Of a stretch of DNA of 64,000 nucleotides, positions 8,595-62,019 are shown piece after piece. The notes under the pieces are model-generated. The model searched no databases. It was not told the DNA's origin and was given only the letters and a program-made list of their open reading frames with translations. Origin of the DNA: Jiangellaceae bacterium (GTDB lineage Bacteria; Actinomycetota; Actinomycetes; Jiangellales; Jiangellaceae); assembly GCA_036374835.1 (NCBI GenBank), contig DASUTB010000005.1, positions 32,708 through 96,707 on the forward strand, read 5' to 3'. Numbering within the stretch: the first letter of the stretch is position 1; each line of letters opens with the position of its first letter. Position numbers and translations under genes: made by a program.

Positions 8595-8667
8595 GGGCCG
8601 CTAGCTCAATTGGCAGAGCTGTGGACTTTTAATCCATAGGTTCGGGGTTCGAGTCCCCGGCGGCCCA
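8595..8667 (+). tRNA. tRNA-Lys (anticodon UUU)
   Basis: Cloverleaf folded by hand. Acceptor stem GGGCCGC pairs with GCGGCCC, anticodon loop is CTTTTAA, T-loop is TTCGAGT, discriminator A. Confidence 0.85.
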
Positions 8668-9855: not shown

Positions 9856-10082
9856 TGACGACGCTGTACATCCGGGACGTGGACGAGACGGTGGCCAACA
9901 CGTTGAAGGAACGTGCTTCGGCTGCGGGTATGTCATTGTCCGCATATGTCGCCCGAGAACTAGAGACCCTCGCATCGCGCCCCACCAACGCTGAGATCGT
10001 CCAGCGGCTCAAGGCCAGGGACCGTTCTACGGGGCCGTCAACCGCCGATATCGTGCAGACGGTGCAAGATAGCCGCAGATGA
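9856..10082 (+). CDS. vapB: Ribbon-helix-helix antitoxin (VapB/FitA-like)
   Basis: MTTLYIRDVDETVANTLKERA. Stop overlaps the vapC start codon (ATGA). Confidence 0.6.
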
Positions 10083-10477
10083 TTGTTGTCGACGCCTCTT
10101 CCATGGTCGAGGCGCTCGTGGGCCGTGACGTCGACGACGGTCTACTCGACGCGCTTGAGGGCAGCGTCCACGGTCCGCACCTGCTCGACGTGGAAGTCCT
10201 TTCCGTCCTGCGGGGCCTCACCCTAAGCGGGAAGCTGTCACCAGAGGTCGCGGAGGCTGCACGTACCGACTACTTCGCCTTGACGATCGCCCGCTACGAG
10301 GTGCATGGCCTTGCTGATCGCATCTGGGGCCTGCGTCACAACTACACCATCTACGACGCCTGCTACGTGGCGCTCGCCGAAGCACTCAATGCACCGCTTT
10401 ACACCTGCGATCACAAACTCGCTGCCGACGGCCACACCGCCGACGTCCTGGTCTTCCCCCGCAGCCACCAACCTTGA
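10079..10477 (+). CDS. vapC: PIN-domain ribonuclease toxin VapC
   Basis: MIVVDASSMVEAL..., with the PIN acidic residues. Confidence 0.8.
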   Translation: MIVVDASSMVEALVGRDVDDGLLDALEGSVHGPHLLDVEVLSVLRGLTLSGKLSPEVAEAARTDYFALTIARYEVHGLADRIWGLRHNYTIYDACYVALAEALNAPLYTCDHKLAADGHTADVLVFPRSHQP

Positions 10478-29806: not shown

Positions 29807-29930
29807 GTGACGTAAGGTGCCGTGCCCAGCCGATCCTCCGGCCGGTTCGACGCATGTTTCTCACCTGATCGCCACCGACGTGGCGATCAGGTGAGCGATC
29901 CGCCCTTACGAGCCGTCCCGGAGCGCCGCG

Positions 29931-30197
29931 TCACACGTTGAGGTGTGCCGGCTCGTGCGTCACGTCCTCGATCTCACCGGCAGCCTTGTCGAGGAGCTCG
30001 TGCACGAGGTGCGACAGCGCGCGAGCCGTCGCGATCTCCTCGCCGATCTGCGGCCTTGCCGGGTCGGAGGGGTTGCGGCGCGCGTGGCCGTTCGCGGTCA
30101 GCTCCGTACCGTCGGCGAGGTGGATCGTCGCCTTGGCGTCGGTGCGAGTGTCGTCCTCGGTGAACGTGACGGTGACCGTCCATTGTCCGGTCTTCAT
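29931..30197 (-). CDS. DUF1876 protein, Rv1738/Rv2632c dormancy-associated family
   Basis: 88 aa, aligns with Mtb Rv1738 as I recall it (WTV...NP.D...IGEEIATARALS.L...H.IE.VTH.PA). GGAGGTG ribosome-binding site before the ATG. Confidence 0.8.
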   Translation of the reverse strand: MKTGQWTVTVTFTEDDTRTDAKATIHLADGTELTANGHARRNPSDPARPQIGEEIATARALSHLVHELLDKAAGEIEDVTHEPAHLNV

Positions 30198-30282
30198 GGT
30201 TTCTTCACCTCCGGATATCTACTTTGTGAGGCATCTACGGACTTTGGCCGGGCTGCAGGCGCCGTTTGGCCGGGGCTTCGGC

Positions 30283-30299
30283 GCTTAACGTGATCATTC
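30283..30299 (-). repeat. Box copy 1: GAATGATCACGTTAAGC, 10 nt past the baeRF stop
   Basis: Read directly. Mini-ORF MITLSAEAPAKRRLQPGQSP. About 60 nt of extended similarity to copy 6. Confidence 0.7.
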
Positions 30300-30309
30300 G
30301 AGGGGGCAC

Positions 30310-31506
30310 CTACCAGCGGAGTAGGGCGCCGATACCGTCCGTGTCGGCGAGCGGCTCGGCGGCCGAGCCGTCCAAGACCGTCACCCGGGCGCCTTCGCGC
30401 AGCGCCATGTCGATCATGCGTTCGTCAAGGCGGGGCTCAGGCTCCAACGCCTGCGGGTCGACGTCCGGCACGGTCTCGGACTCGGCGACGAGCCGGCCGT
30501 CCGGCGTTCGGTTGCCCGTCCACGCCCCGTCCGCCGACAGCAGCAGGTGCGCCACACGCCCCTCGTTCAAGGCTGCGAGTGTTCTGGACAGCCCGCACGA
30601 GCCGCCGTCACTGTTGTCGCTCATCGCGGCGTTGCGCACCCGTTCGGCCAGCCGCCCGTAGCGTGCGATGCGTGCTTTATCGAGCGGTTCGCGGACCACA
30701 CCGGCAAGCTTCGTAGCCGACAGCGACGTCCCCGTGTGATGCGTCCGGACGACGTCCGCGCCGAGGTGCTCGGGGATGGTCTCGGCCACGGCGTGCACGT
30801 TCTTGGGGTCGCCCGCGATCACGACACATTCCCAGCCGAACTCGCGCGCATGGTCGGCGACGCGCGGACCGAGCGTGTGCAGGTATTGGAGCAGCCGATC
30901 CTCTTCCCGCTTGTCGAACAGGTCGTGATGCGAGGCGCTGCTGTGATGCGTCGTCGTCGGGGTGGCGTGGCCCTTTCCGGTTAGCTCGCGCCGGTCGGCG
31001 AGGTCCTCCGGATGTGCGATCGTCGCCACCTCGGTCACCGAACCCATGCGTATGTCCACGAGACGGACTTCGTGCGCGCCGACGGCGACGCATCCGGCCG
31101 GCGGGGCGGCACTCCACGCTGTCAGCAGCGGTCGCAGCGCGGGGCGAGGTCCCATCTCCACCTGATCCGACAACGGCATCTGAACGGTCAGCCTTTCGAC
31201 ATGACCGTTGCTGAGCGTTGCGAACATGGCCCTACCGCGGCCCGGTGCGCGGGCGTCCAGCACCGCTTCGACGTCCTGGTTCAGCTCGTTGAGCCGGTTG
31301 CCGATCGTCGAGAAGCGGTCCCGTGGGCTGGACTTGCGAAGCTCGTCCCGCAGCCGCTTCAAGTCCTTGCGGACCCGGGCCTGCCACGCGGGTTGCGATC
31401 CCTCGTCGGTGGGATCCGCCGTGGCGTACAGCGACAGCACACCGATGTCGTCACTCATATCCGCCAGGCCGCGTAACGTCGCCCAATCGAGAGACACGGT
31501 GCTCAC
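30310..31506 (-). CDS. eRF1-domain (baeRF/Rv2629-like) protein
   Basis: 398 aa. Call rests on overall resemblance to the mycobacterial Rv2629-like peptide-chain-release-factor-like family. Confidence 0.55.
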   Translation of the reverse strand: MSTVSLDWATLRGLADMSDDIGVLSLYATADPTDEGSQPAWQARVRKDLKRLRDELRKSSPRDRFSTIGNRLNELNQDVEAVLDARAPGRGRAMFATLSNGHVERLTVQMPLSDQVEMGPRPALRPLLTAWSAAPPAGCVAVGAHEVRLVDIRMGSVTEVATIAHPEDLADRRELTGKGHATPTTTHHSSASHHDLFDKREEDRLLQYLHTLGPRVADHAREFGWECVVIAGDPKNVHAVAETIPEHLGADVVRTHHTGTSLSATKLAGVVREPLDKARIARYGRLAERVRNAAMSDNSDGGSCGLSRTLAALNEGRVAHLLLSADGAWTGNRTPDGRLVAESETVPDVDPQALEPEPRLDERMIDMALREGARVTVLDGSAAEPLADTDGIGALLRW

Positions 31507-32677: not shown

Positions 32678-32689
32678 CGCGGGTCACCC

Positions 32690-32840
32690 TTCCTTCCGCG
32701 TCCGCCTACCGAGTTAGCTGACGGGTTTGGGCGGGGAAGGCGCCCTTCGGCCACCGGTGGCGGCCGACTCACCCCGGGGAAGTGATGGGTCCCCGGTTCC
32801 AGCCTTTGGGCCGGATTCGGCGGGAAGCGAGCTGTCGGTC
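32690..32840 (-). ncRNA. c-di-AMP riboswitch (ydaO/yuaA class) in the leader of the NlpC/P60 gene
   Basis: Transcript-sense sequence GAAUCCGGCCCAAAGGCUGGAACCGGGGACCC...CCCCGGGGUGAGUCGGCC...GGCCGAAGGGCGCC...CCCAAACCCGUCAGCUAACUCGGUAGGCGG matches the hallmark ydaO blocks as I recall them (GAAUCCGG, GGGGUGAAUC, CCCGAACCCGUCAGCUAACCUCGUA). This riboswitch class is known to precede rpf and NlpC/P60 genes in Actinobacteria. Confidence 0.65.
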
Positions 32841-32915: not shown

Positions 32916-32932
32916 GAATGATCACGTTCGGT
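32916..32932 (+). repeat. Box copy 2: GAATGATCACGTTCGG, heading an ~85-bp element (32916-33000)
   Basis: Read directly. Internal palindrome gtagcttcacgaggcatgc/atgcctggtgaagctat. Confidence 0.7.
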
Positions 32933-33031
32933 ATGTCTCACGTAGCTTCACGAGGCATGCATGCCTGGTGAAGCTATGTCACTCCTGGTGAAGTGTTCGG
33001 CGCAGCGGCAAACGGCGCTAGGGTGTGCGAC

Positions 33032-35097: not shown

Positions 35098-35181
35098 ATC
35101 GCGAGCAGCGTTGCCGGCACTTTGCTGGGCGGATGCCGCCGTTGCTCGGTCTGAAGGCATCGTATGGCTGGGAAATACCGG

Positions 35182-35197
35182 CCTTACGTGGTCATTC
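35182..35197 (-). repeat. Box copy 7: GAATGACCACGTAAGG
   Basis: Read directly at the 3' end of the small ORF. Confidence 0.6.
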
Positions 35198-35435
35198 GGC
35201 GGCGGCGCTGGTTGATTGAGAGGAAGTTGATCAGTGCGACCGCGGCGACGATGGCGGCCGGGATCGACACCCAGCGGTTGTCGTCGCCGGCGATGAACGT
35301 GACGACAGCGAATACGACGAACACAAGTCCGCTGAGCCACATGCGGACCGTGCCCCCGGTGGGAAGCTCGGCATCACCCGCGCCGGCGGCGGAGTCCCGC
35401 TCACCGCCACCGTCGGTGTTGTTCGATTCGGCCAT
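35184..35435 (-). CDS. Small hypothetical membrane protein
   Basis: 83 aa, one transmembrane segment, ends ...RRRRMTT with box copy 7 embedded at its 3' end. Weak. Confidence 0.35.
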   Translation of the reverse strand: MAESNNTDGGGERDSAAGAGDAELPTGGTVRMWLSGLVFVVFAVVTFIAGDDNRWVSIPAAIVAAVALINFLSINQRRRRMTT

Positions 35436-47054: not shown

Positions 47055-47100
47055 ACCCCTGATAGTGGCATGCAAAGGTGAACAGGAAGTAGCCAATCTC

Positions 47101-47156
47101 CCATGATCATGTTCATTCAACCCTGGATTTCTTGGGTTGATTGAACATGATCATGG
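47101..47156. promoter_or_regulatory. 23-bp near-perfect inverted repeat CCATGATCATGTTCATTCAACCC-N10-GGGTTGATTGAACATGATCATGG between the mshD stop and the ppk start
   Basis: Read directly; one mismatch between the arms. Confidence 0.45.
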
Positions 47157-48020
47157 GGAGGTGGCTGCGTATTGGACGTCGATCCCCGTCCTGACGAAGC
47201 CGAGCGACGAATACAGCGACCGCGCCGGCGTGCTGGATTCTTCGACATACAGCATCGCCTCGTGCACCCCGGTATCGCGGAGATGGTGCAGGCCGATCAG
47301 CGTCAGCGCCCGGCCGAGCCCGGTGCCCTGCTCGTCGGGACGGACTCCCAGCACGTACACCTCGCCGCGCCCGGGCTCGGCGATCTTCGTCCAATGGAAT
47401 CCGGCCATCCGCCCGTTCCGCTCGGCGACGAAAAAGCCCCCGGGGTCGAACCACGGCTGGGCCATGAGGCTTCGGAGATCCTCCAGCGTGACCGAACCCT
47501 GCTCGGGATGGTCGGCGAACGCATCGGCGTTGACCGCGAGCCAAGGGCCGTCGTCCGGGCCGGGGTCGAAGGTTCGGATGGTGACGCCCTCGGGCAGCTC
47601 GGGAACCGGGAGCGGCGCCTCGAGCGGCCGGGTCATCTGCCACAGCGCGCGGGCCCTGGTCAGCCGGGCCGATGCGGCGAGTGCCCGGGCGGCGGGAAGG
47701 TCGCCGTGCGCCCAGACCCGCGCCGTCGGTCGTTGGGTTAGCAGCTCATCGAGCAGTTCCCGGCCGTGGCCGCGGTTGCGGTGCGCCGGACGAACGGCCA
47801 GTTCAGCGCTGCCGTCCGGGTCCAACTGCGCGTAGCCGGCGAGTTCGCCACCCGTCGCCGAGGCGATCAGATGGGTGACGGCGCCGCTCCCGATGTTGAC
47901 GAGAGCACGATCGGATGCCGGTCGGACGCCGTCCTCCGCTTCGGCGGCGCCGATCAGGGCACGGACGCGAGCCTGCCGGTACTCCGTCAGCGGATCGGTC
48001 GTGACGAGCACATCAGCCAC
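47151..48020 (-). CDS. mshD: Mycothiol synthase MshD (tandem GNAT domains)
   Basis: Two acetyltransferase folds; neighbourhood with glnR as in mycobacteria. Confidence 0.8.
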   Translation of the reverse strand: MADVLVTTDPLTEYRQARVRALIGAAEAEDGVRPASDRALVNIGSGAVTHLIASATGGELAGYAQLDPDGSAELAVRPAHRNRGHGRELLDELLTQRPTARVWAHGDLPAARALAASARLTRARALWQMTRPLEAPLPVPELPEGVTIRTFDPGPDDGPWLAVNADAFADHPEQGSVTLEDLRSLMAQPWFDPGGFFVAERNGRMAGFHWTKIAEPGRGEVYVLGVRPDEQGTGLGRALTLIGLHHLRDTGVHEAMLYVEESSTPARSLYSSLGFVRTGIDVQYAATSP

Positions 48021-48930: not shown

Positions 48931-49776
48931 ATGGTTCCGTTGCCGACTTGTTGCTCGTTGTGCCGGGTATCGTGCCGGCGGGATGGGAAAATTCACCGTG
49001 TGCCATCGCTGTTCGCCGCCGGGCTCGTAGCGGTACTGGCTCTCGCGTCCGCCGCCGGGAGCCCGCTTCTTGCTGCCGGAGTAGTCCTCGTCCAGGGCAT
49101 CTTCGCGTTCGGCGCGGTCCGGCAGGCAGGTGTACCCGGTGCGGCCGTGGCGACGTGGCTTGCCTTCGGGGTCGGTGCCGGTACGTCGGTCTGGTTCGTC
49201 GTGGACGACATTCCGAAACTCACGCCGATGGCCCGCCTGCTCGCCGCCGGGTTCCTGCTCGCCATCGTGGTTCAGTTGTGGCGCCGGCATGGACGGCCGT
49301 TGCTGACGGCATCGTTGTCTGTCACGGTGACAGCTGTGGTACTGGCCGCTCTCCCTGCCGCGCTCGTCGCGCTTCGCACTGGCGACGCGGGTGCGTACGC
49401 GGTCGGGCTGGGCCTGTTGGGGGTTGCAATCGTCCTGGTGGTGGACGGCGTGGGTGGGCGCTCGGTGCTGGCGCGAATGCTGGCGGTGCTCGCCGCCGCC
49501 GCGGCCGCCGTGATGCTCGTGATGCTGGTCAGCATGGCGGATGTGCCTGAGGTGGGCGCTGTCGTTCTGGCCGCCTTCGGAGCGTTGCTCGCCGTAGCGG
49601 CCCTGTATGCGGTGGATCGGCTGGCCGCAGAGTCATCCACAGGTGAGAAACAGCCGGACGGTGGCGGCGACATCCTGGAGTTGGTGGCGGTCGACATACG
49701 GCCGTTGCAGCTCACCTTGCCGATCATCATGGCGGCGCCGGTGATTTACCTTTTGGGGCGATTGTTGATCGGATGA
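48931..49776 (+). CDS. Hypothetical polytopic membrane protein
   Basis: Hydrophobic, A/L/V-rich with multiple predicted transmembrane segments. Start uncertain. Confidence 0.45.
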   Translation: MVPLPTCCSLCRVSCRRDGKIHRVPSLFAAGLVAVLALASAAGSPLLAAGVVLVQGIFAFGAVRQAGVPGAAVATWLAFGVGAGTSVWFVVDDIPKLTPMARLLAAGFLLAIVVQLWRRHGRPLLTASLSVTVTAVVLAALPAALVALRTGDAGAYAVGLGLLGVAIVLVVDGVGGRSVLARMLAVLAAAAAAVMLVMLVSMADVPEVGAVVLAAFGALLAVAALYAVDRLAAESSTGEKQPDGGGDILELVAVDIRPLQLTLPIIMAAPVIYLLGRLLIG

Positions 49777-50357
49777 TCGGGCGGCGGGATGAACCATCGG
49801 CCTGGAGGAGACGTTCCTCCGGTATGCCGACGTCCGTCGCTGATGAGGAGCTCGTCCGGACGCTGTATGACGAGCATGCCGGCGCGCTACTCGGCTATGT
49901 GACCCGGCTCCTCGGCGGTGACCGGCAGCGTGCTGAGGATGTCGTCCAGGAGACCTTGTTCCGCGCGTGGCGGCACCCGGATGCGCTCACTCCCGAGCGG
50001 GGTTCGGTGCGCCCGTGGTTGTGGACCGTCGCGCGACGGGTCGTGCTGGACGGCGAGCGCGCCCGCCGCGCCCGGCCGCGCGAGGTGACCGACGCGACGG
50101 TCCCGGCGGCGCTCGTCGACGATGGTGTCGAAGCGGCGTTGTCGGCGCAGGTCGTGGCCGAGGCTCTGCGGGCGCTGACGTCGGAGCATCGCCAAGCTTT
50201 GATCGAGACGTACTACCGCGGCCGGAGCGTCGCCGAGGCCGCCGAGGTGATGGGAGTACCGGAAGGAACCGTGAAATCGCGCACGTACTACGCGCTGCGG
50301 AACCTGCGCTCCGCGCTGGAAGAGCGCGGCTTCGGTGCATCGGAGGCAGGCTCATGA
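49773..50357 (+). CDS. ECF (sigma-70 family) RNA polymerase sigma factor
   Basis: Regions 2 and 4. Alternative start at ATG 49824. Confidence 0.85.
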   Translation: MIGRRDEPSAWRRRSSGMPTSVADEELVRTLYDEHAGALLGYVTRLLGGDRQRAEDVVQETLFRAWRHPDALTPERGSVRPWLWTVARRVVLDGERARRARPREVTDATVPAALVDDGVEAALSAQVVAEALRALTSEHRQALIETYYRGRSVAEAAEVMGVPEGTVKSRTYYALRNLRSALEERGFGASEAGS

Positions 50358-51052
50358 GCTCGCCGCAGTGCCGCGCGATCCGGCTCGAACTCGGCGCGTA
50401 CGTGCTCGGGCTACTCGATGCCGGCGACGAGCAGCGGGTCCGCGAACACCTCGTCCGGTGCGACGAATGCGCGGTCGAAGCGGCGTCGTTGCGCGAGACG
50501 AGTAAGGTGTTGGCGCTCACCGATGTGGGCCTGGTGGAACAGCCGGCCGAGCCGTCACCTGAGGTACTGCCCAAGTTGCTCCAGCGGATCGCCGCGGCGC
50601 GCCGGCGCCGCCGGATCGCTGGGGTCGTCGCGGCGGCCGCCGCTGCTGCGGTCGTGACGGTGGGCGGCATCGCGTTCTTGGACGCGGCCGACGACTCGCC
50701 CGGCGCGAGCGTTGAAGCCGGCGACGTGAGCACCGAGCCGGCGGTGACGACGTCCGGCCGGGACGGCACCGTTGCGGTCGAGGTGGACGTCTGGGATCGT
50801 GACTGGGGCTCGAAGCTCACGGTCGACGTCTCCGGCGTTCCGGCCGGCTACCGCTGCAGCCTCATCGCGATCGGCGGCGACGGCCGGCGCGAGACCGCGG
50901 CGACATGGGTCGTGCCGAGCGCCGGATACAACGAGGGCGGCGGCGGTCTGACAATGGACGGCGCACACGGTCTGCGGTACTGGGAAGTCGACCGGTACGA
51001 GGTAGTCACGTCCGACGGTGAGCTGCTCGTCACGCTCCCGCTTGTCGATTGA
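50354..51052 (+). CDS. Zinc-dependent anti-sigma factor (HxxxCxxC), membrane-spanning
   Basis: HLVRCDECAV motif and a transmembrane segment. Start overlaps the sigma-factor stop (ATGA). Stop codon lies inside box copy 3. Confidence 0.75.
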   Translation: MSSPQCRAIRLELGAYVLGLLDAGDEQRVREHLVRCDECAVEAASLRETSKVLALTDVGLVEQPAEPSPEVLPKLLQRIAAARRRRRIAGVVAAAAAAAVVTVGGIAFLDAADDSPGASVEAGDVSTEPAVTTSGRDGTVAVEVDVWDRDWGSKLTVDVSGVPAGYRCSLIAIGGDGRRETAATWVVPSAGYNEGGGGLTMDGAHGLRYWEVDRYEVVTSDGELLVTLPLVD

Positions 51053-51063
51053 TCACGTTCGGT
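51047..51063 (+). repeat. Box copy 3: GATTGATCACGTTCGG, heading an ~89-bp element (51047-51135) with 25-bp terminal inverted repeats
   Basis: Inverted repeats 51045-51069 and 51111-51135 read directly. About 80% identical to the 32916-33000 element. Confidence 0.7.
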
Positions 51064-51177
51064 AGGAGTGACGTAGCTTCACGAGGCATGCGGGCCTAGG
51101 GAAGATACGACACTCCTGCCGAACGTGATCAATCGACATCGGGAACAGACGTTGGCGGCGAGTGCGTTGAGGCGAGC

Positions 51178-51657
51178 GTGGAGGGTTTGCTCGTCGCCGC
51201 GGCGGCATTGCTGGGCGCCACCGGGTTCGGGCTGTGGCGGCGCCGGGTGGACGGCCGCCTTCGCCAGGTCGCCCATAGTCACGGCCTAGCGCTCCGGAGC
51301 GGTGCCAGTACGCCGGAACGGGACACCGTCCCTACGGCGGACGCGAGCGTGATCACCCCGTCCGAGCTTGGCCAGGACCTCGGGCGGGTCGCGACGTTCG
51401 TCTCGTTCTCCACCGCCTTTTGCCAGCCGTGCCGGGCGAACCGCCAGGTGTTGGGCCACCTTGCGACGACCGCGGACGGCGTGGCGCATGTCGAGATCGA
51501 CGCCGAATCCCGGCTCGACCTTGTCCGTGCCCTCGGGGTGACGCGCACGCCGACCACATTCGTGCTCGACGCATCGGGCGCCGTTCGGCAGCGGGCGACC
51601 GGTGTTCTGCGGCTCGACGACGCTCGGACCGCGATCCGACAGGTGACCGATGCATGA
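51178..51657 (+). CDS. Thioredoxin-family protein (TlpA/ThiX-like), membrane anchored
   Basis: CxxC (FCQPC) active site. GTG start. Confidence 0.65.
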   Translation: MEGLLVAAAALLGATGFGLWRRRVDGRLRQVAHSHGLALRSGASTPERDTVPTADASVITPSELGQDLGRVATFVSFSTAFCQPCRANRQVLGHLATTADGVAHVEIDAESRLDLVRALGVTRTPTTFVLDASGAVRQRATGVLRLDDARTAIRQVTDA

Positions 51658-53207: not shown

Positions 53208-53503
53208 GCTGCGCAGCGCCGGAGGGGGGCGCGTCTCTCGAAGGAGTCGATGTCGGATCCGAGGCGGTCATCCAGGGTGTCGTGAAGGCCGGTGGCGGCC
53301 CGGTCGGCGGTGCGTACGTCCGGCTGCTGGACCGCAGCGGCGAGTTCACCGCGGAGGTGCCGACCGGCGACGGCGGCGAGTTCCGCTTCTTCGCCGCACC
53401 GGGCGAGTGGACGCTGCGCACGCTCGCTCCAGGCATCGAGCCTGTCGACCAGCCGGTGCAGGCGTCGCTCGGCGCCGTGGCTGACGTCGAGATCACCGTC
53501 TGA
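53204..53503 (+). CDS. DUF1416 (SseC-like) protein
   Basis: Translationally coupled to the rhodanese (ATGA). Mtb-like cysA2-sseC2 pairing. Confidence 0.7.
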   Translation: MSCAAPEGGASLEGVDVGSEAVIQGVVKAGGGPVGGAYVRLLDRSGEFTAEVPTGDGGEFRFFAAPGEWTLRTLAPGIEPVDQPVQASLGAVADVEITV

Positions 53504-53518
53504 ATGACCACGTTAAGC
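53502..53518 (+). repeat. Box copy 4: GAATGACCACGTTAAGC, fused to the SseC stop (cTGAATGAcc), followed by a 17-bp hairpin
   Basis: Read directly. Mini-ORF MTTLSR. Flanking inverted repeats at 53518-53534 and 53556-53572. Confidence 0.7.
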
Positions 53519-53618
53519 CGGTGATTCCCTGCTTCACGCTCGCTACAGGACGTGTAAAGCAGGGAATCACCGCGCATCGGCCGCCCGGCCACAAGCGCCG
53601 GCACGTAGTCTGACGTCC

Positions 53619-54266: not shown

Positions 54267-54321
54267 GTGCTCACCGGCGATGCTGGACGGGTAGGTAAGG
54301 GCGGTTGGCTGGGGAGCGGGC

Positions 54322-54338
54322 GCTTTACGTGATCATTC
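54322..54338 (-). repeat. Box copy 5: GAATGATCACGTAAAGC
   Basis: Read directly. Extended similarity to copy 6 (…AGCGCC…CCCCAGCCAA…). Confidence 0.65.
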
Positions 54339-54410
54339 CAGGGTAAGTGTCTTCACCGGATGCCGATCTTTCGTTAGGGTACGCACCAGTAGCGGCGGGA
54401 AGGCACACGG

Positions 54411-59900: not shown

Positions 59901-62019
59901 CGCGGCCGACCGCTACGACGAGGGCTATGAACGCGGCGTGCACGACGAGGACGCCACCGCGATCCTCGAGGCGCTGCTGCGCCTGCACGCCGGCGCGGGC
60001 GTGCTGCGGTATCCGCCGGACGTGCGCGCGGCGGTGCAGCTGTACTGGGCGTTCGGCGCCTCGGACGACGACAAGGCGTCCTGGGTCGCCCGCGTGGGCT
60101 CGCTCGCGCGGGCGCGCGCCGCGTTCGGGCATGCCAGCGGGATCGCCGAGCTGTGCGCTGAGGCCGGTGGTGCGGTGGCGTCATTCCTCGGCGGAAACCT
60201 GGGTGAATCCACTGTCGCTATAGGTGCAGCAGATTCACCCGGGATCGTTCCGCGCCTGCCGTCTCTTACCGGATCGCGGGCGTCGCTCGCCGGTGAGTAT
60301 CTCTTCGAGGAATTGGCGAGCCAGCCGGACGGGTTCGTGACCGGTGCGGCGGCCAAGCGCCTGCTGCGGCGGTTCCAGCGCAAGCTCGGGGGTGCCCGGT
60401 CGGTATCGCGGCGGGCGTTGGACGGTGAGCTGCGCGCGCTCAGCGACGATCTGGCGGCCCGCCATCAGCTCCTCACGGCGTGGCTGAGCTCCTATGTCGC
60501 GGCTGCGGACGGCGCGGAACCGGCCGCCGAGGCGGACCTGGCCGAGGCGGTGACGCTGGAGCTGTGCGGCCGCGAGGTGACGCACTACGATTCGTCGGCC
60601 GAGCTGGAGGCGACGGTCGAAGGCTTGCTCGGCACGCACCGGCGAATCGCGGACCGCACCATGACGCTACGGCTGGACGAGACGTTGGCCCGCACGCGTG
60701 AGTTCCGGATCGAGCGGGTGCCCGCCTACCGCGACTACCAGCGGCAGCGAAACGCCCTTGTCGAGGCCGAGCGGTCGCGCCTACGTGTGGGCGAGTACCA
60801 GCCCGGTGTGCTCGCCGGCTTCGTCCGCAACCAGCTGCTTGACCAGGTCTATCTGCCGCTGATCGGGGACAACCTGGCCAAGCAGCTCGGCACCGCCGGC
60901 GACGACAAGCGCACCGATCTGTCCGGTCTGCTGATGCTGATCTCACCGCCGGGCTACGGCAAGACCACACTGATGGAGTACCTGGCGAACCGGCTCGGAC
61001 TGGTTTTCGTCAAGGTCAACGGGCCGGCGCTCGGGCATGGTGTCACGTCCATCGATCCGGCGGACGCGCCGAACGCCACCGCGCGCCAGGAAGTCGAGAA
61101 GATCTCCTTCGCGCTGGAGATGGGCAACAACGTGCTGCTGTATCTGGACGACATCCAGCACACGTCGCCGGAGCTGCTGCAGAAGTTCATCTCGTTGTGC
61201 GACGCGCAACGCCGGATGGAGGGCGTCTGGGACGGCCGGACGCGCACCTACGACCTGCGGGGCAAGCGGTTCGCCGTATGCATGGCCGGCAATCCGTACA
61301 CCGGGGCCGGACGGCGGTTCCGGGTGCCGGACATGCTGGCCAACCGGGCCGACGTGTGGAACCTGGGCGACGTGCTGGCGGGGCGGGACGAGCTGTTCGC
61401 GCTGAGCTACATCGAGAACTCTCTGACGTCCAACGCGGTGCTGGCGCCGCTCGCCGGACGGTCGGTCGCCGACCTCAAGCTGCTGCTGCGGCTGGCCCGC
61501 GGCGACGACTCCGCAAGCCCGGACCAGTTGGAGCACAGCTACCCGCCTGCCGAACTCGACCAGGTGCTCGCGGTCCTCGGCAAACTGACCCATGTGCAGC
61601 AGGTGGTGCTGGCGGTGAACCAGGCCTACATCGCGTCCGCCGCGCAGGCGGACGCCTCCCGCACCGAGCCGCCGTTCCTGCTGCAGGGTTCGTACCGCAA
61701 CATGAACCGGCTCGCCGAGCGCATCGTGCCGGCCATGAACGACGACGAACTGGCCGCGCTGATCGACGACCACTACGCCGGGGAGGCCCAGACGCTGACG
61801 TCCGGCGCGGAGGCGAACATCCTGAAGCTGGCCGAGCTACGTGGCCGCCTCACGCCGGAGCAAGCTGAACGCTGGGCTGAGGTAAAGGCCGGCTATCTGC
61901 GGGAGAGGGCGCTCGGCGGTGCCGAGGACGACCCGATCACCCGTGCCGTCGGTGCCGTCGGCCTGCTCGCCGACCAGGTCGCCGCCGTCGAATCCGCCAT
62001 CCGTTCCCACTCAGAATGA
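56977..62019 (+). CDS. Giant (1680 aa) uncharacterised protein with C-terminal AAA_5 (MoxR/dynein-like) ATPase module
   Basis: Start overlaps the flotillin stop (GTGA). Walker A LISPPGYGKTTL, Walker B VLLYLDDIQH, sensor-1-like CMAGNP. N-terminal ~450 aa and the central helical region have no obvious family. Confidence 0.8.
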   Translation: MTATLDAGTYELLRTRLAEHAGELARRAEQLNQRRIEVFGGTELTLVGTERIRTENNCVPRDIVPLGGDRDLLLLGYNVFIGLKPETTVGDVFAVHEFRRGDDGGFSFEPVGTDVLLDEQFERDFAELYRYYRDTRLMQLRRTGPSVLAVFQTGPNDDDIRVLRWRIGENGALTYVDNRGERENVLPPSHDFEWTETTREDHVPGRYPHISIEDEVFVDTLGGDLTVSVENNTETGEGIYREPVTEPLQSLADADVHYARVGPLILLRIRPYNETEWRHLVFNTRTHGVVRLDGIGQACQRLPEDHGIIFPGGYYLATGVSRTFDTDVTNLEFQRLIRSPNGEDVLYVFHARAEGRSLLLPYNVIRKQVDTPIYCHGYSVFGDGTLVVFRATSDEPTRVHPMQVWRSPYMSESYAASQPAGTGPLERVGNADLVRGISDCLSVTRMLDEMAPSTPVFEGIIAACRRVADQFHWLDDPELFSLGEPLREVRSAAEQVLGELETVEALTAQAATALDEAEADIASLVRRVRGEAPRAASAWVSQLAELHRAEGHLVTLRELRYADVERIDELAASLEADVADAAKRAVTFLQRDDAFADYHREVERLAGAATEIRTVAEAAPVDEELTEQAEALAIVTEVVGTLDIADATVRTAILGRISEVLAGVNRTRAVLAARRRELLEAENRAAFAAEFALLGQAVSSGLALADTPEACDEQLGRLLLTLENLEARFGEFDDFMADLEAKREDVYEAFSARKQALLDERARRAGRLAESADRILGSVRRRVGSLGSLDEVNTYFASDPMVAKLRSLADDLRELGDLVRAEELDGRIKAARQEAARALRDQLDLYEGNTIRLGRHRFAVHSEPIELTMVPGVRPAAGASAPTDHTGGSAAVDAVMNFVLTGTDYRAPVHDEAFAATRRFWDQLLVSESPDVYRGEYLASTILAAASEGRDGLSLDGLHEAAVVDGGLLDVVRSVAADRYDEGYERGVHDEDATAILEALLRLHAGAGVLRYPPDVRAAVQLYWAFGASDDDKASWVARVGSLARARAAFGHASGIAELCAEAGGAVASFLGGNLGESTVAIGAADSPGIVPRLPSLTGSRASLAGEYLFEELASQPDGFVTGAAAKRLLRRFQRKLGGARSVSRRALDGELRALSDDLAARHQLLTAWLSSYVAAADGAEPAAEADLAEAVTLELCGREVTHYDSSAELEATVEGLLGTHRRIADRTMTLRLDETLARTREFRIERVPAYRDYQRQRNALVEAERSRLRVGEYQPGVLAGFVRNQLLDQVYLPLIGDNLAKQLGTAGDDKRTDLSGLLMLISPPGYGKTTLMEYLANRLGLVFVKVNGPALGHGVTSIDPADAPNATARQEVEKISFALEMGNNVLLYLDDIQHTSPELLQKFISLCDAQRRMEGVWDGRTRTYDLRGKRFAVCMAGNPYTGAGRRFRVPDMLANRADVWNLGDVLAGRDELFALSYIENSLTSNAVLAPLAGRSVADLKLLLRLARGDDSASPDQLEHSYPPAELDQVLAVLGKLTHVQQVVLAVNQAYIASAAQADASRTEPPFLLQGSYRNMNRLAERIVPAMNDDELAALIDDHYAGEAQTLTSGAEANILKLAELRGRLTPEQAERWAEVKAGYLRERALGGAEDDPITRAVGAVGLLADQVAAVESAIRSHSE

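Follow-up and report, generated by a model that had tools for sequence, protein, structure and literature searches.

A family of ~90-bp palindromic repeats, probably spread by copying, in intergenic DNA of a Jiangellaceae bacterium and its relatives

We analysed two similar intergenic segments, here called copy 1 and copy 2, in a 64,000-nucleotide stretch of a Jiangellaceae (Actinomycetota) genome—GenBank assembly GCA_036374835.1, contig DASUTB010000005.1, positions 32,708 to 96,707, hereafter the window. The original prediction, made from the sequence alone, had taken them for a small non-autonomous transposable element resembling a MITE (a transposable element of the miniature inverted-repeat type), or else for a structured small RNA. 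The two segments are copies of a lineage-specific, non-coding family of ~90-bp palindromes, F1, that resembles REP/REPIN, ERIC, or TRIT (Tuberculosis Rho-independent terminator) elements, has probably spread by copying, and probably serves as a hairpin at the 3' ends of transcripts. The units are repeated, palindromic, and variable in a paired fashion; they are dispersed over loci, differ in presence and absence between relatives, and overlap stop codons.

A repeated hairpin and its paired variation

Copy 1 (32916-32992) and copy 2 (51047-51123) are 82% identical over 77 nt without a gap in a repeat search of the window, which bears out the identity of about 80% first reported. They have in common an exact 21-mer, ACGTAGCTTCACGAGGCATGC, for which shuffled sequences give an expectation of 0.00 matches, and an exact 15-mer, TGATCACGTTCGGTA, which occurs once more, with 1 mismatch, on the opposite arm of copy 2. 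Aligned in both orientations, the two copies yield a common near-perfect palindrome of ~90 bp, TGATCACGTTCGGTAGGAGTGACGTAGCTTCACGAGGCATGC plus its complement; copy 2 retains nearly the whole of it and copy 1 the left arm and inner hairpin. F1 units are 83-96 bp in size, contain no open reading frame (ORF), and lie between called genes. The two copies in the window are as follows:

32916-32998, + strand: F1 copy 1, asymmetric (type B), with left box 32916-32933, 6-mer TGTCTC, inner hairpin 32940-32979, and a diverged right arm, CACTCCTGGTGAAGTGTTCGG
51043-51138, + strand: F1 copy 2, intact hairpin (type A), with left box 51047-51064, right box 51117-51134, and 6-mers GGAGTG/CACTCC

Copy 2 is bounded by inverted repeats, as first described, but their stated length of 25 bp was too modest, since the whole element is a hairpin: an inverted-repeat search delimits arms at 51043-51087 and 51094-51138, each 45 nt long, 89% complementary and separated by a 6-nt gap. 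Its RNA fold of -70.4 kcal/mol compares with -27.8 +/- 3.5 kcal/mol for shuffles (z = -12). The 16-bp palindrome noted inside copy 1 is likewise present but larger, with 21-nt arms (32940-32960 and 32959-32979) that carry 2 mismatches and make a stem of ~20 bp; copy 1 folds at -38.2 kcal/mol (z = -3.3).

F1 extends well beyond these two segments. A scan of a species-representative genome collection with the core 21-mer gave one real match, a full-length copy in another Actinomycetota metagenome-assembled genome (locus L002; loci fetched for comparison carry L numbers), and one chance match in Prevotella. A metagenome scan with the pattern GATCACGTTCGG, 10 free positions, RTAGCTTC returned 13 contigs, 11 of them from the single assembly JABAOG01; two of the matches (L008, L014) are due to chance. 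A profile search added two copies on L010, bringing this 1.9-kb contig to three, and a protein look-up reached a further copy in L034, the ortholog of L003. Once orthologs were merged (copy 1 = L011, L002 = L005, L003 = L034, L012 = L037, and probably L007 = the L010 contig-end copy), ~13 distinct F1 loci remained, counted across contigs of close relatives and including the 2 in the window. The original prediction had named a total of only two copies as telling against a mobile element; the ~13 loci, with three copies on L010 alone, speak otherwise. All F1 copies are intergenic with unrelated housekeeping genes as neighbours, and occur in either orientation to those genes, also between convergent ones. 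Viral contigs gave 0 matches to the F1 pattern and 0 to its foot box, and a blastn search of plasmids gave no F1 match.

Assemblies tend to break in these units. Seven of the 11 JABAOG01 contigs begin or stop inside F1, and ten independent Logan contigs with an identical uracil-DNA glycosylase (UDG) gene are all interrupted within copy 1, at position 32940, 32943, or 32949 of the window, the behaviour expected of repeated or hairpin sequence. Because stretches of ~60 nt are near-identical at unrelated loci, which convergence could not produce, we conclude that F1 spreads by copying.

From foot to centre, the F1 palindrome consists of a foot box, GAATGATCACGTTCGGYA, a variable 6-mer, an inner block, ACGTAGCTTCAC, and a GCATGC centre. 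The same arrangement is seen in an alignment of 12 copies, where the foot box (here GATCACGTTCGGYA) and the inner block are conserved and the 6-mer between them varies. The foot box is mostly preceded by GAAT, GATT, GAGT, or GTTC and in the F1 stem can also be written (G)AATGATCACGTTCGGYA; the intact stem measures 40-45 bp. Four copies are of type A, that is, intact with two readable arms, and their 6-mers differ by locus while remaining perfectly complementary between left and right arm:

copy 2: GGAGTG/CACTCC
L007: TGAGTC/GACTCA
L009: GGGTCC/GGACCC
L012: GGAGTC/GACTCC

The inverted repeats of L007, L009, and L012 are perfect or near-perfect. The foot, too, varies yet stays paired, reading GATT/AATC in copy 2 and GTTC/GAAC in its ortholog L031. 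Type B was found at five independent loci (copy 1 = L011, L002 = L005, L003 = L034, L006, and one L010 copy); its left arm and inner hairpin are those of type A, whereas its right end differs (GTCAC.CCT.GTG...). Recurrence at five loci suggests that type B is a propagated variant and not the outcome of independent decay.

Under a full-stem model, 75% of the alignment cells were paired, compared with 30-37% when the partner was slid by 1-3 columns. Double-sided changes came to 13 pairs against 9.8 +/- 1.6 in shuffles, with 23 of 500 shuffles reaching 13; statistically, the covariation count modestly favours pairing. Since template switching within hairpins can generate compensatory changes (PMC8794818), arm symmetry with locus-specific spacers can arise without selection, and pairing alone is no proof of function at the RNA level.

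That F1 is a structured small RNA or cis-regulatory RNA gene with two or more paralogous copies, the other suggestion made at the outset, is very unlikely. The very stable hairpin with its measure of covariation would suit such a gene, as would the fact that, in both window copies, the arm with better conservation is on the + strand and precedes + strand genes; but copies occur in both orientations, also between convergent genes and with no consistent strand bias, and a palindrome folds alike on both strands. Moreover, Rfam gave no match at gathering level—permissive thresholds brought up just generic, sub-threshold miRNA-precursor hairpin models—and neither a sigma-70-type promoter (promoter scan) nor a U-tail terminator was detected at either window locus. 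A reading of the left arm itself as a promoter (TGATCA, 18 nt, TAGCTT) was dropped, as the scan was unsupportive and copies lie between convergent genes.

Gain, loss, and retention at orthologous sites

Gene calls confirmed the intergenic settings originally described, a divergent NlpC/P60-ung spacer for copy 1 and the region downstream of an anti-sigma factor gene for copy 2. The first is a 355-nt spacer between the NlpC/P60 gene (- strand) and the UDG gene, ung (+ strand, start 33032). A c-di-AMP (ydaO/yuaA) riboswitch at 32688-32832 (- strand, 75.9 bits) leads the NlpC/P60 gene and is kept in L011, L027, and L029. On the ung side, TAGGGT at 33019-33024 lies 7 nt 5' of the ATG, and L029 and L027 preserve it as TANNNT, which suggests a leaderless ung mRNA; copy 1 sits immediately upstream and leaves TAGGGT untouched. 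The motif TAGCCT at 32878-32873 (- strand) is also conserved and looks like the -10 element of the riboswitch/NlpC-P60 transcript.

At this site, L011 (UDG 98% identical) has copy 1, while L029 (90%) and L027 (85%) are without it. In the spacers of the latter two, the riboswitch is retained along with two blocks, GGCAAACCGAAACGCC and TAGGSTGTGC..ATG, between which lie only 13-38 unrelated nt. As the element is absent and its flanks are kept, copy 1 was gained in the window's own sub-lineage, between what appear to be two divergent core promoters, TAGCCT and TAGGGT, and gains of this kind between close relatives fit spread by copying. Copy 1 is recent, asymmetric, and placed in a promoter spacer; it bears no sign of a specific role and is probably neutral.

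Least probable of the explanations we considered is that the segments are an operator bound by a transcription factor dimer, or that a regulatory region common to the ung and thioredoxin-like promoters has been duplicated. Both window copies do lie upstream of + strand genes, and the palindrome contains the self-complementary hexamers TGATCA and GCATGC. Against this, arms of 40-45 bp far exceed operator length, the foot box itself is asymmetric, copies occur between convergent genes and at unrelated loci, and L029 and L027, which lack the element, still have the conserved promoter block of ung (TAGGGT, 7 nt, ATG).

Copy 2 has a different history. It starts at the stop of a zf-HC2 anti-sigma gene (50354-51052), whose TGA (51050-51052) is also the TGA of the TGATCA in the left box of the element, and it ends 3 nt 5' of GGGAACA, upstream of a thioredoxin-like gene (GTG start 51178). 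The arrangement GGGAACA-17 nt-CGTTGA (window 51141-51180) is invariant in four relatives and ends 7 nt before this GTG; it would be an ECF-type (extracytoplasmic function) promoter for a leaderless transcript and presumably depends on the sigma gene next to it (49773-50357) together with the anti-sigma partner. Two relatives, L031 (anti-sigma 71% identical) and L032 (65%), carry a diverged hairpin exactly at the copy-2 site. In L031 the boxes GGTTCGATCACGTTC / GAACGTGATCGAACC are kept and the inner arms are different, still complementary; in L032 the inner arms are kept and the boxes lost. A diverged hairpin at the same site in both shows that copy 2 is old and has been retained as a hairpin.

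A separate observation concerns the same hairpin in L030 (GCA_964386135.1), which is apparently the same strain (anti-sigma 100% identical). Its positions 1745-1838 show ~8 differences from window 51043-51138, all within the hairpin and all to A or T (e.g., TGATCAC to TTTTAAC), and ~120 nt of aligned flanks are identical. These differences are probably sequencing or assembly error; they may also be real hypermutation.

A further site of turnover is the spacer between trmI and rarA. There, an intact F1 is found in L012 and a decayed box-footed hairpin in L037 (TrmI 89% identical); L035 (TrmI 97%) and L038 (84%) instead bear tandem runs of two or three hairpins on another foot, GATCAGGTGAC. All four share conserved flanks, a GCTGA stop to one side and GGGTAGCCTCG to the other, and none has a target-site duplication. 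Hairpins of this GATCAGGTGAC/G type were recorded at three places:

29857-29898 of the window: 16-bp perfect stem between convergent genes
1631-1777 of L035: tandem hairpins in the trmI-rarA spacer
10864-10911 of L038: tandem hairpins in the trmI-rarA spacer (arrays of 2-3 in L035 and L038)

The foot box, other box-footed elements, and stop codons

With up to 2 mismatches allowed, the 13-nt box GAATGAYCACGTT is found 9 times in the window, where 1.56 occurrences would be expected; eight of them we read as real, and all eight are intergenic. It forms the foot not only of F1 but of three other kinds of element—a second hairpin family (F2), a third palindrome, and four single-box elements:

30222-30304, - strand: single-box element, GAATGATCACGTTAAGCGCC..., between baeRF-family and Rv2632c-like genes
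35161-35202, - strand: single-box element, GAATGACCACGTAAGGCC..., with the TAA stop of the upstream 84-aa ORF within the box
47091-47166, unstranded: third box-footed palindrome, feet CCCATGATCATGTTCATTCAACCC / inverse, variant ATGATCATGTTC, 33-nt arms, -56 kcal/mol, z = -11.5
53502-53575, + strand: F2 hairpin, foot box GAATGACCACGTTAAGCC, then a 16-bp hairpin, GGTGATTCCCTGCTT/AAGCAGGGAATCACC
54302-54343, - strand: single-box element, GAATGATCACGTAAAGCGCC..., not alignable to the L032 ortholog
62014-62091, + strand: single-box element, the TGA of GAATGACC being the stop of a 1707-aa DUF3686 gene

F2 is recognised by the signature GAATGACCACGTTAAG + GGTGWTTCCCTGCTT. At 2657-2744 of L032, between PHO4 and NUDIX genes, it forms an 88-nt palindrome that is perfect and has two boxes (-74 to -77 kcal/mol); additional nested left boxes adjoin it, as do tandem right-box fragments (GTCATTCGGGCGG, 3-4 times). 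The corresponding spacer of the window is too short for an F2 palindrome and is empty except for CCGAATGG...GTCATTCTGG. The third palindrome lies between polyphosphate kinase and GNAT acetyltransferase genes, the TGA of its ATGATCA being the GNAT stop (- strand), and is absent in the L032 ortholog, which has another small hairpin. More generally, the L032 sites orthologous to 47091-47166 and 53502-53575 hold non-homologous sequence. The four single-box elements follow the consensus GAATGAYCACGTWAAGSGCC, 5-7 nt, CCCMGCCAAAC, and are like an F2 left arm without the right arm. At the first of them, the box (30287-30299) alone is conserved in the orthologous baeRF/Rv2632c-like spacer of L027, and the remaining spacer has diverged. 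The baeRF-family (Rv2629-like) and Rv2632c-like genes adjoin each other in the window (29931-31506, - strand), and the pair is syntenic in L027; we take their homologues to be members of the M. tuberculosis DosR regulon.

The box is closely tied to gene ends: at 15 boxes the stop codon lies inside the box or no more than 28 nt upstream. The TGA of TGAYCA is itself the stop at six sites (copy 2, L010, L034, positions 47152 and 62018 of the window, and, in a separate box-footed hairpin, L004 4918), at window 35193 a TAA stop falls within the box, and at eight more boxes the stop is 6-28 nt upstream. The pattern recurs at an orthologous gene end in L038, where a hairpin that is not homologous starts with the gene's TGA inside TGATCA. 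Over the whole window, TGATCA was observed 26 times against 9.8 expected under a first-order model, and GATC 525 times against 383. Avoidance of TGATCA as a restriction site is ruled out by this over-representation. In an informal comparison, LexA boxes, ECF -35/-10 elements, Crp/Fnr, Zur, and GlnR sites, the PHO box, and the inner inverted-repeat end of Tn3 all failed to fit the spacing or symmetry of the box.

Anchoring of this kind raises the possibility that the elements are non-mobile gene-end hairpins under host selection, a TRIT-like terminator code with its TGATCA foot at stops, and that their likeness stems from selection for a factor's motif with occasional gene conversion. Precedent exists in the 147 palindromic TRIT hairpins near stop codons (PMC3152330), and the stop codons inside the foot box, the different, non-homologous TGATCA-footed hairpins at orthologous gene ends of relatives, the box conserved alone at the baeRF/Rv2632c-like site in L027, and the long-term keeping of copy 2 with compensatory change would all be in its favour. 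We nevertheless consider it unlikely. The ~60 nt of near-identity at unrelated loci takes in the inner arm and centre, for which no motif role is obvious, and requires copying; copy 1 and L007 lie in promoter-side spacers; and just 5-6 strong intergenic hairpins occur in 64 kb, which makes them sparse, as REPs are, and no universal terminator.

Two further features of the window stand apart from the box. A perfect 14-bp hairpin, GAAACCCCTGAACC/GGTTCAGGGGTTTC, at 63728-63765 lies ~25 nt past a tRNA (63630-63703), lacks a GATC foot, and probably serves as the terminator of that tRNA. A PIN-domain ORF (10073-10477, + strand), within a region of lower third-codon-position GC (~8.5-10.6 kb) and beside a tRNA gene (8595-8667), is possibly part of a toxin-antitoxin module or small island.

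Mode of spread and place among known repeat families

The mobile element envisaged by the original prediction is recovered in part. F1 is small, non-coding, built of inverted repeats, found at ~13 loci, and absent from the ung site of L029 and L027; but neither target-site duplications, for which a search had been proposed, at copies with two readable flanks, nor a transposase among ~55 window ORFs came to light. As a classic MITE, it would be a deletion derivative of a DDE insertion sequence whose transposase reads GAATGAYCACGTT ends and moves them by cut-and-paste, leaving target-site duplications. One terminal motif common to several internally different families, as in MITE families that share a transposase, and dispersed copies that differ in presence among relatives are what such an origin would produce. 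It is nonetheless an unlikely one: no direct repeats abut copy 2, L012, L031, L034, or the palindrome 47091-47166, whose flanks are inverted and extend the stem; no insertion sequence with box ends was noticed in the window or the 38 fetched loci (~190 kb); and a partner end is missing from the single-box elements. The ISL3 fragment present in L026 is unrelated. Because the whole unit is palindromic, F1 stands nearer to REPIN-, ERIC-, or TRIT-type elements than to a classic DDE-transposon MITE.

For F1, we infer a mobilising enzyme, a single-strand route, and a role as terminator or stabiliser. The family would multiply by copy-and-paste into intergenic DNA, most likely with a single-stranded hairpin as the substrate of a trans-acting enzyme, as in REP/REPIN-RAYT or IS200/IS605 systems, and not by DDE cut-and-paste. 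A fully self-complementary unit without target-site duplications points to such a substrate, and these two properties together with a foot common to several families point to a hairpin-recognising activity that acts in trans. Symmetry of the arms would probably be kept by template switching within the hairpin. On the transcript, the unit would form a very stable hairpin at the gene end, with the TGA of the TGATCA foot often serving as the stop, and may work as a terminator without a U-tail, possibly assisted by a factor, or as 3'-end protection, insulating neighbouring transcription units from each other; in the case of copy 2, the hairpin would set the sigma/anti-sigma operon apart from the following gene's ECF-type promoter. 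Three observations speak for resident copies being used, or at any rate tolerated, as hairpins at 3' ends: the anchoring at stop codons, the retention of copy 2, and a box that is conserved at an orthologous site.

Rather doubtful, though worth stating, is the idea that the GAATGAYCACGTT box and related GATC feet are recognition sites of a candidate hairpin-reading, trans-acting Jiangellaceae protein. This might be an HUH/RAYT-like transposase, or a termination or processing factor that reads a stop-anchored double-stranded motif, as proposed for TRIT. A box-reading protein would explain the common foot of otherwise unrelated hairpin families, as well as the alternation of conserved blocks with paired but free spacers.

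Several points weigh against a copy-spread family of 3'-end hairpins. None of the copies with two readable flanks showed a target-site duplication, and no clean empty-site junction was obtained; the flanks of copy 1 hold just an offset, imperfect direct repeat, CGGCAAAC. A Pfam scan revealed no transposase, integrase, or Y1 domain in ~55 window ORFs (~58 ORFs in all, including alternative frames at two sites and one L010 gene). Neither window locus has a U-tract terminator, the hairpins being followed by ATCGACATCGGG and GCGCAGCGGC; since mycobacterial RNA polymerase is reported to need a U-tract at intrinsic terminators (PMC3993855), a simple terminator role is unproven. RNA stability and sense-strand G-U bias were inconsistent over the three hairpins in which they could be tested. 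The ~13 loci were counted across metagenome contigs that are not all assignable to one genome, so the figure is no per-genome copy number. The contrast between conserved box and variable spacer is partly a matter of ascertainment, as the search pattern fixed the left-arm blocks; the copies found without the pattern (copy 1, copy 2, L002, and L034) show the same conserved and variable layout. Finally, the presence of copy 2 at one site across deep divergence fits a functional hairpin retained by the host equally well.

Among known systems, F1 works most like REP/REPIN and TRIT elements, yet it can be filed under neither. REP, BIME, and REPIN elements (PMC3116915, PMC3337134, PMC3733652) are, like F1, short, non-coding, intergenic palindromes with a hairpin unit of ~100 nt and several families per genome. 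Both kinds occur in tandem clusters (here 2-3 hairpins in L035 and L038) without target-site duplications, both persist vertically for long periods with turnover, and both are sited downstream of genes as well as between convergent ones. A REP, however, is a 20-40-nt palindrome with a GTAG (or CGTC) tag at one end (PMC3733652), whereas the arms of F1 are not self-palindromic, its foot tag is a 13-16-nt box, GAATGAYCACGTT, and GTAG appears only internally, in ACGTAGC. REP/REPIN elements are mobilised by RAYT (Y1-HUH) transposases; for F1, there was no Y1_Tnp match among the window genes, nor did a RAYT gene turn up in the sequences analysed. The host of F1 belongs to the Actinomycetota, and 'Actinobacteria' are not named in the REP survey (PMC3733652) nor in the REPIN/RAYT papers that we found.

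TRIT, in Mycobacterium, comprises 147 conserved palindromic hairpins placed narrowly around the stop codon, for which a stem-binding factor has been proposed (PMC3152330). It is the closest published parallel for the anchoring at stop codons, and F1 may be regarded as at most an analogue of it. Both are actinobacterial, conserved in sequence and structure, palindromic and hence bidirectional, located at the stop codon, devoid of a U-tail, and dispersed in many copies. TRIT is reported from Mycobacterium only, and its likeness to F1 is drawn here at the level of description (PMC3152330); unlike TRIT, some F1 copies lie off gene ends, and presence and absence differ among relatives.

ERIC/IRU elements and the 127-bp RU-1 (PMC2759123, PMC3184786) resemble F1 as imperfect palindromes of ~100-130 bp in intergenic transcribed regions, with variable copy number and no known transposase. 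In contrast to F1, ERIC has an unrelated sequence and host, and a stop-anchored foot box common to several families has not been reported for it. The paired DNA uptake sequences of Neisseria and Haemophilus are short, asymmetric motifs that, like the F1 box, stand in inverted pairs at the foot of hairpins which lie downstream of genes and otherwise vary. F1 departs from them in that its interior sequence is also common to the copies and in that the box, at ~8 occurrences in 64 kb, all intergenic, is far sparser; moreover, this lineage is not known to have a competence system.

The definition of a REP palindrome and tag does not apply to F1, TRIT is restricted to Mycobacterium, and the target-site duplications of MITEs were not found at copies with readable flanks; F1 can therefore be filed under none of these. 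It is best called a new family within the known class of small bacterial palindromic repeats, and no new kind of element. REP, REPIN, ERIC, and TRIT elements shape transcription-unit boundaries and genome plasticity and are known chiefly from Proteobacteria, apart from one case confined to the genus Mycobacterium. Here, an uncultured soil actinobacterial lineage has comparable hairpin elements, with a common foot, overlap with stop codons, and turnover among close relatives. Such elements also have a practical consequence, in that they break metagenome assemblies of the lineage (7 of 11 contigs, and 10 of 10 Logan contigs) and create apparent hypervariable spots. If an enzyme or factor does read the box, it would offer an entry point to how U-tail-less hairpins work at actinobacterial gene ends; and if that reader is an HUH/RAYT-like transposase, F1 would belong to the first REPIN-type system described in Actinomycetota.

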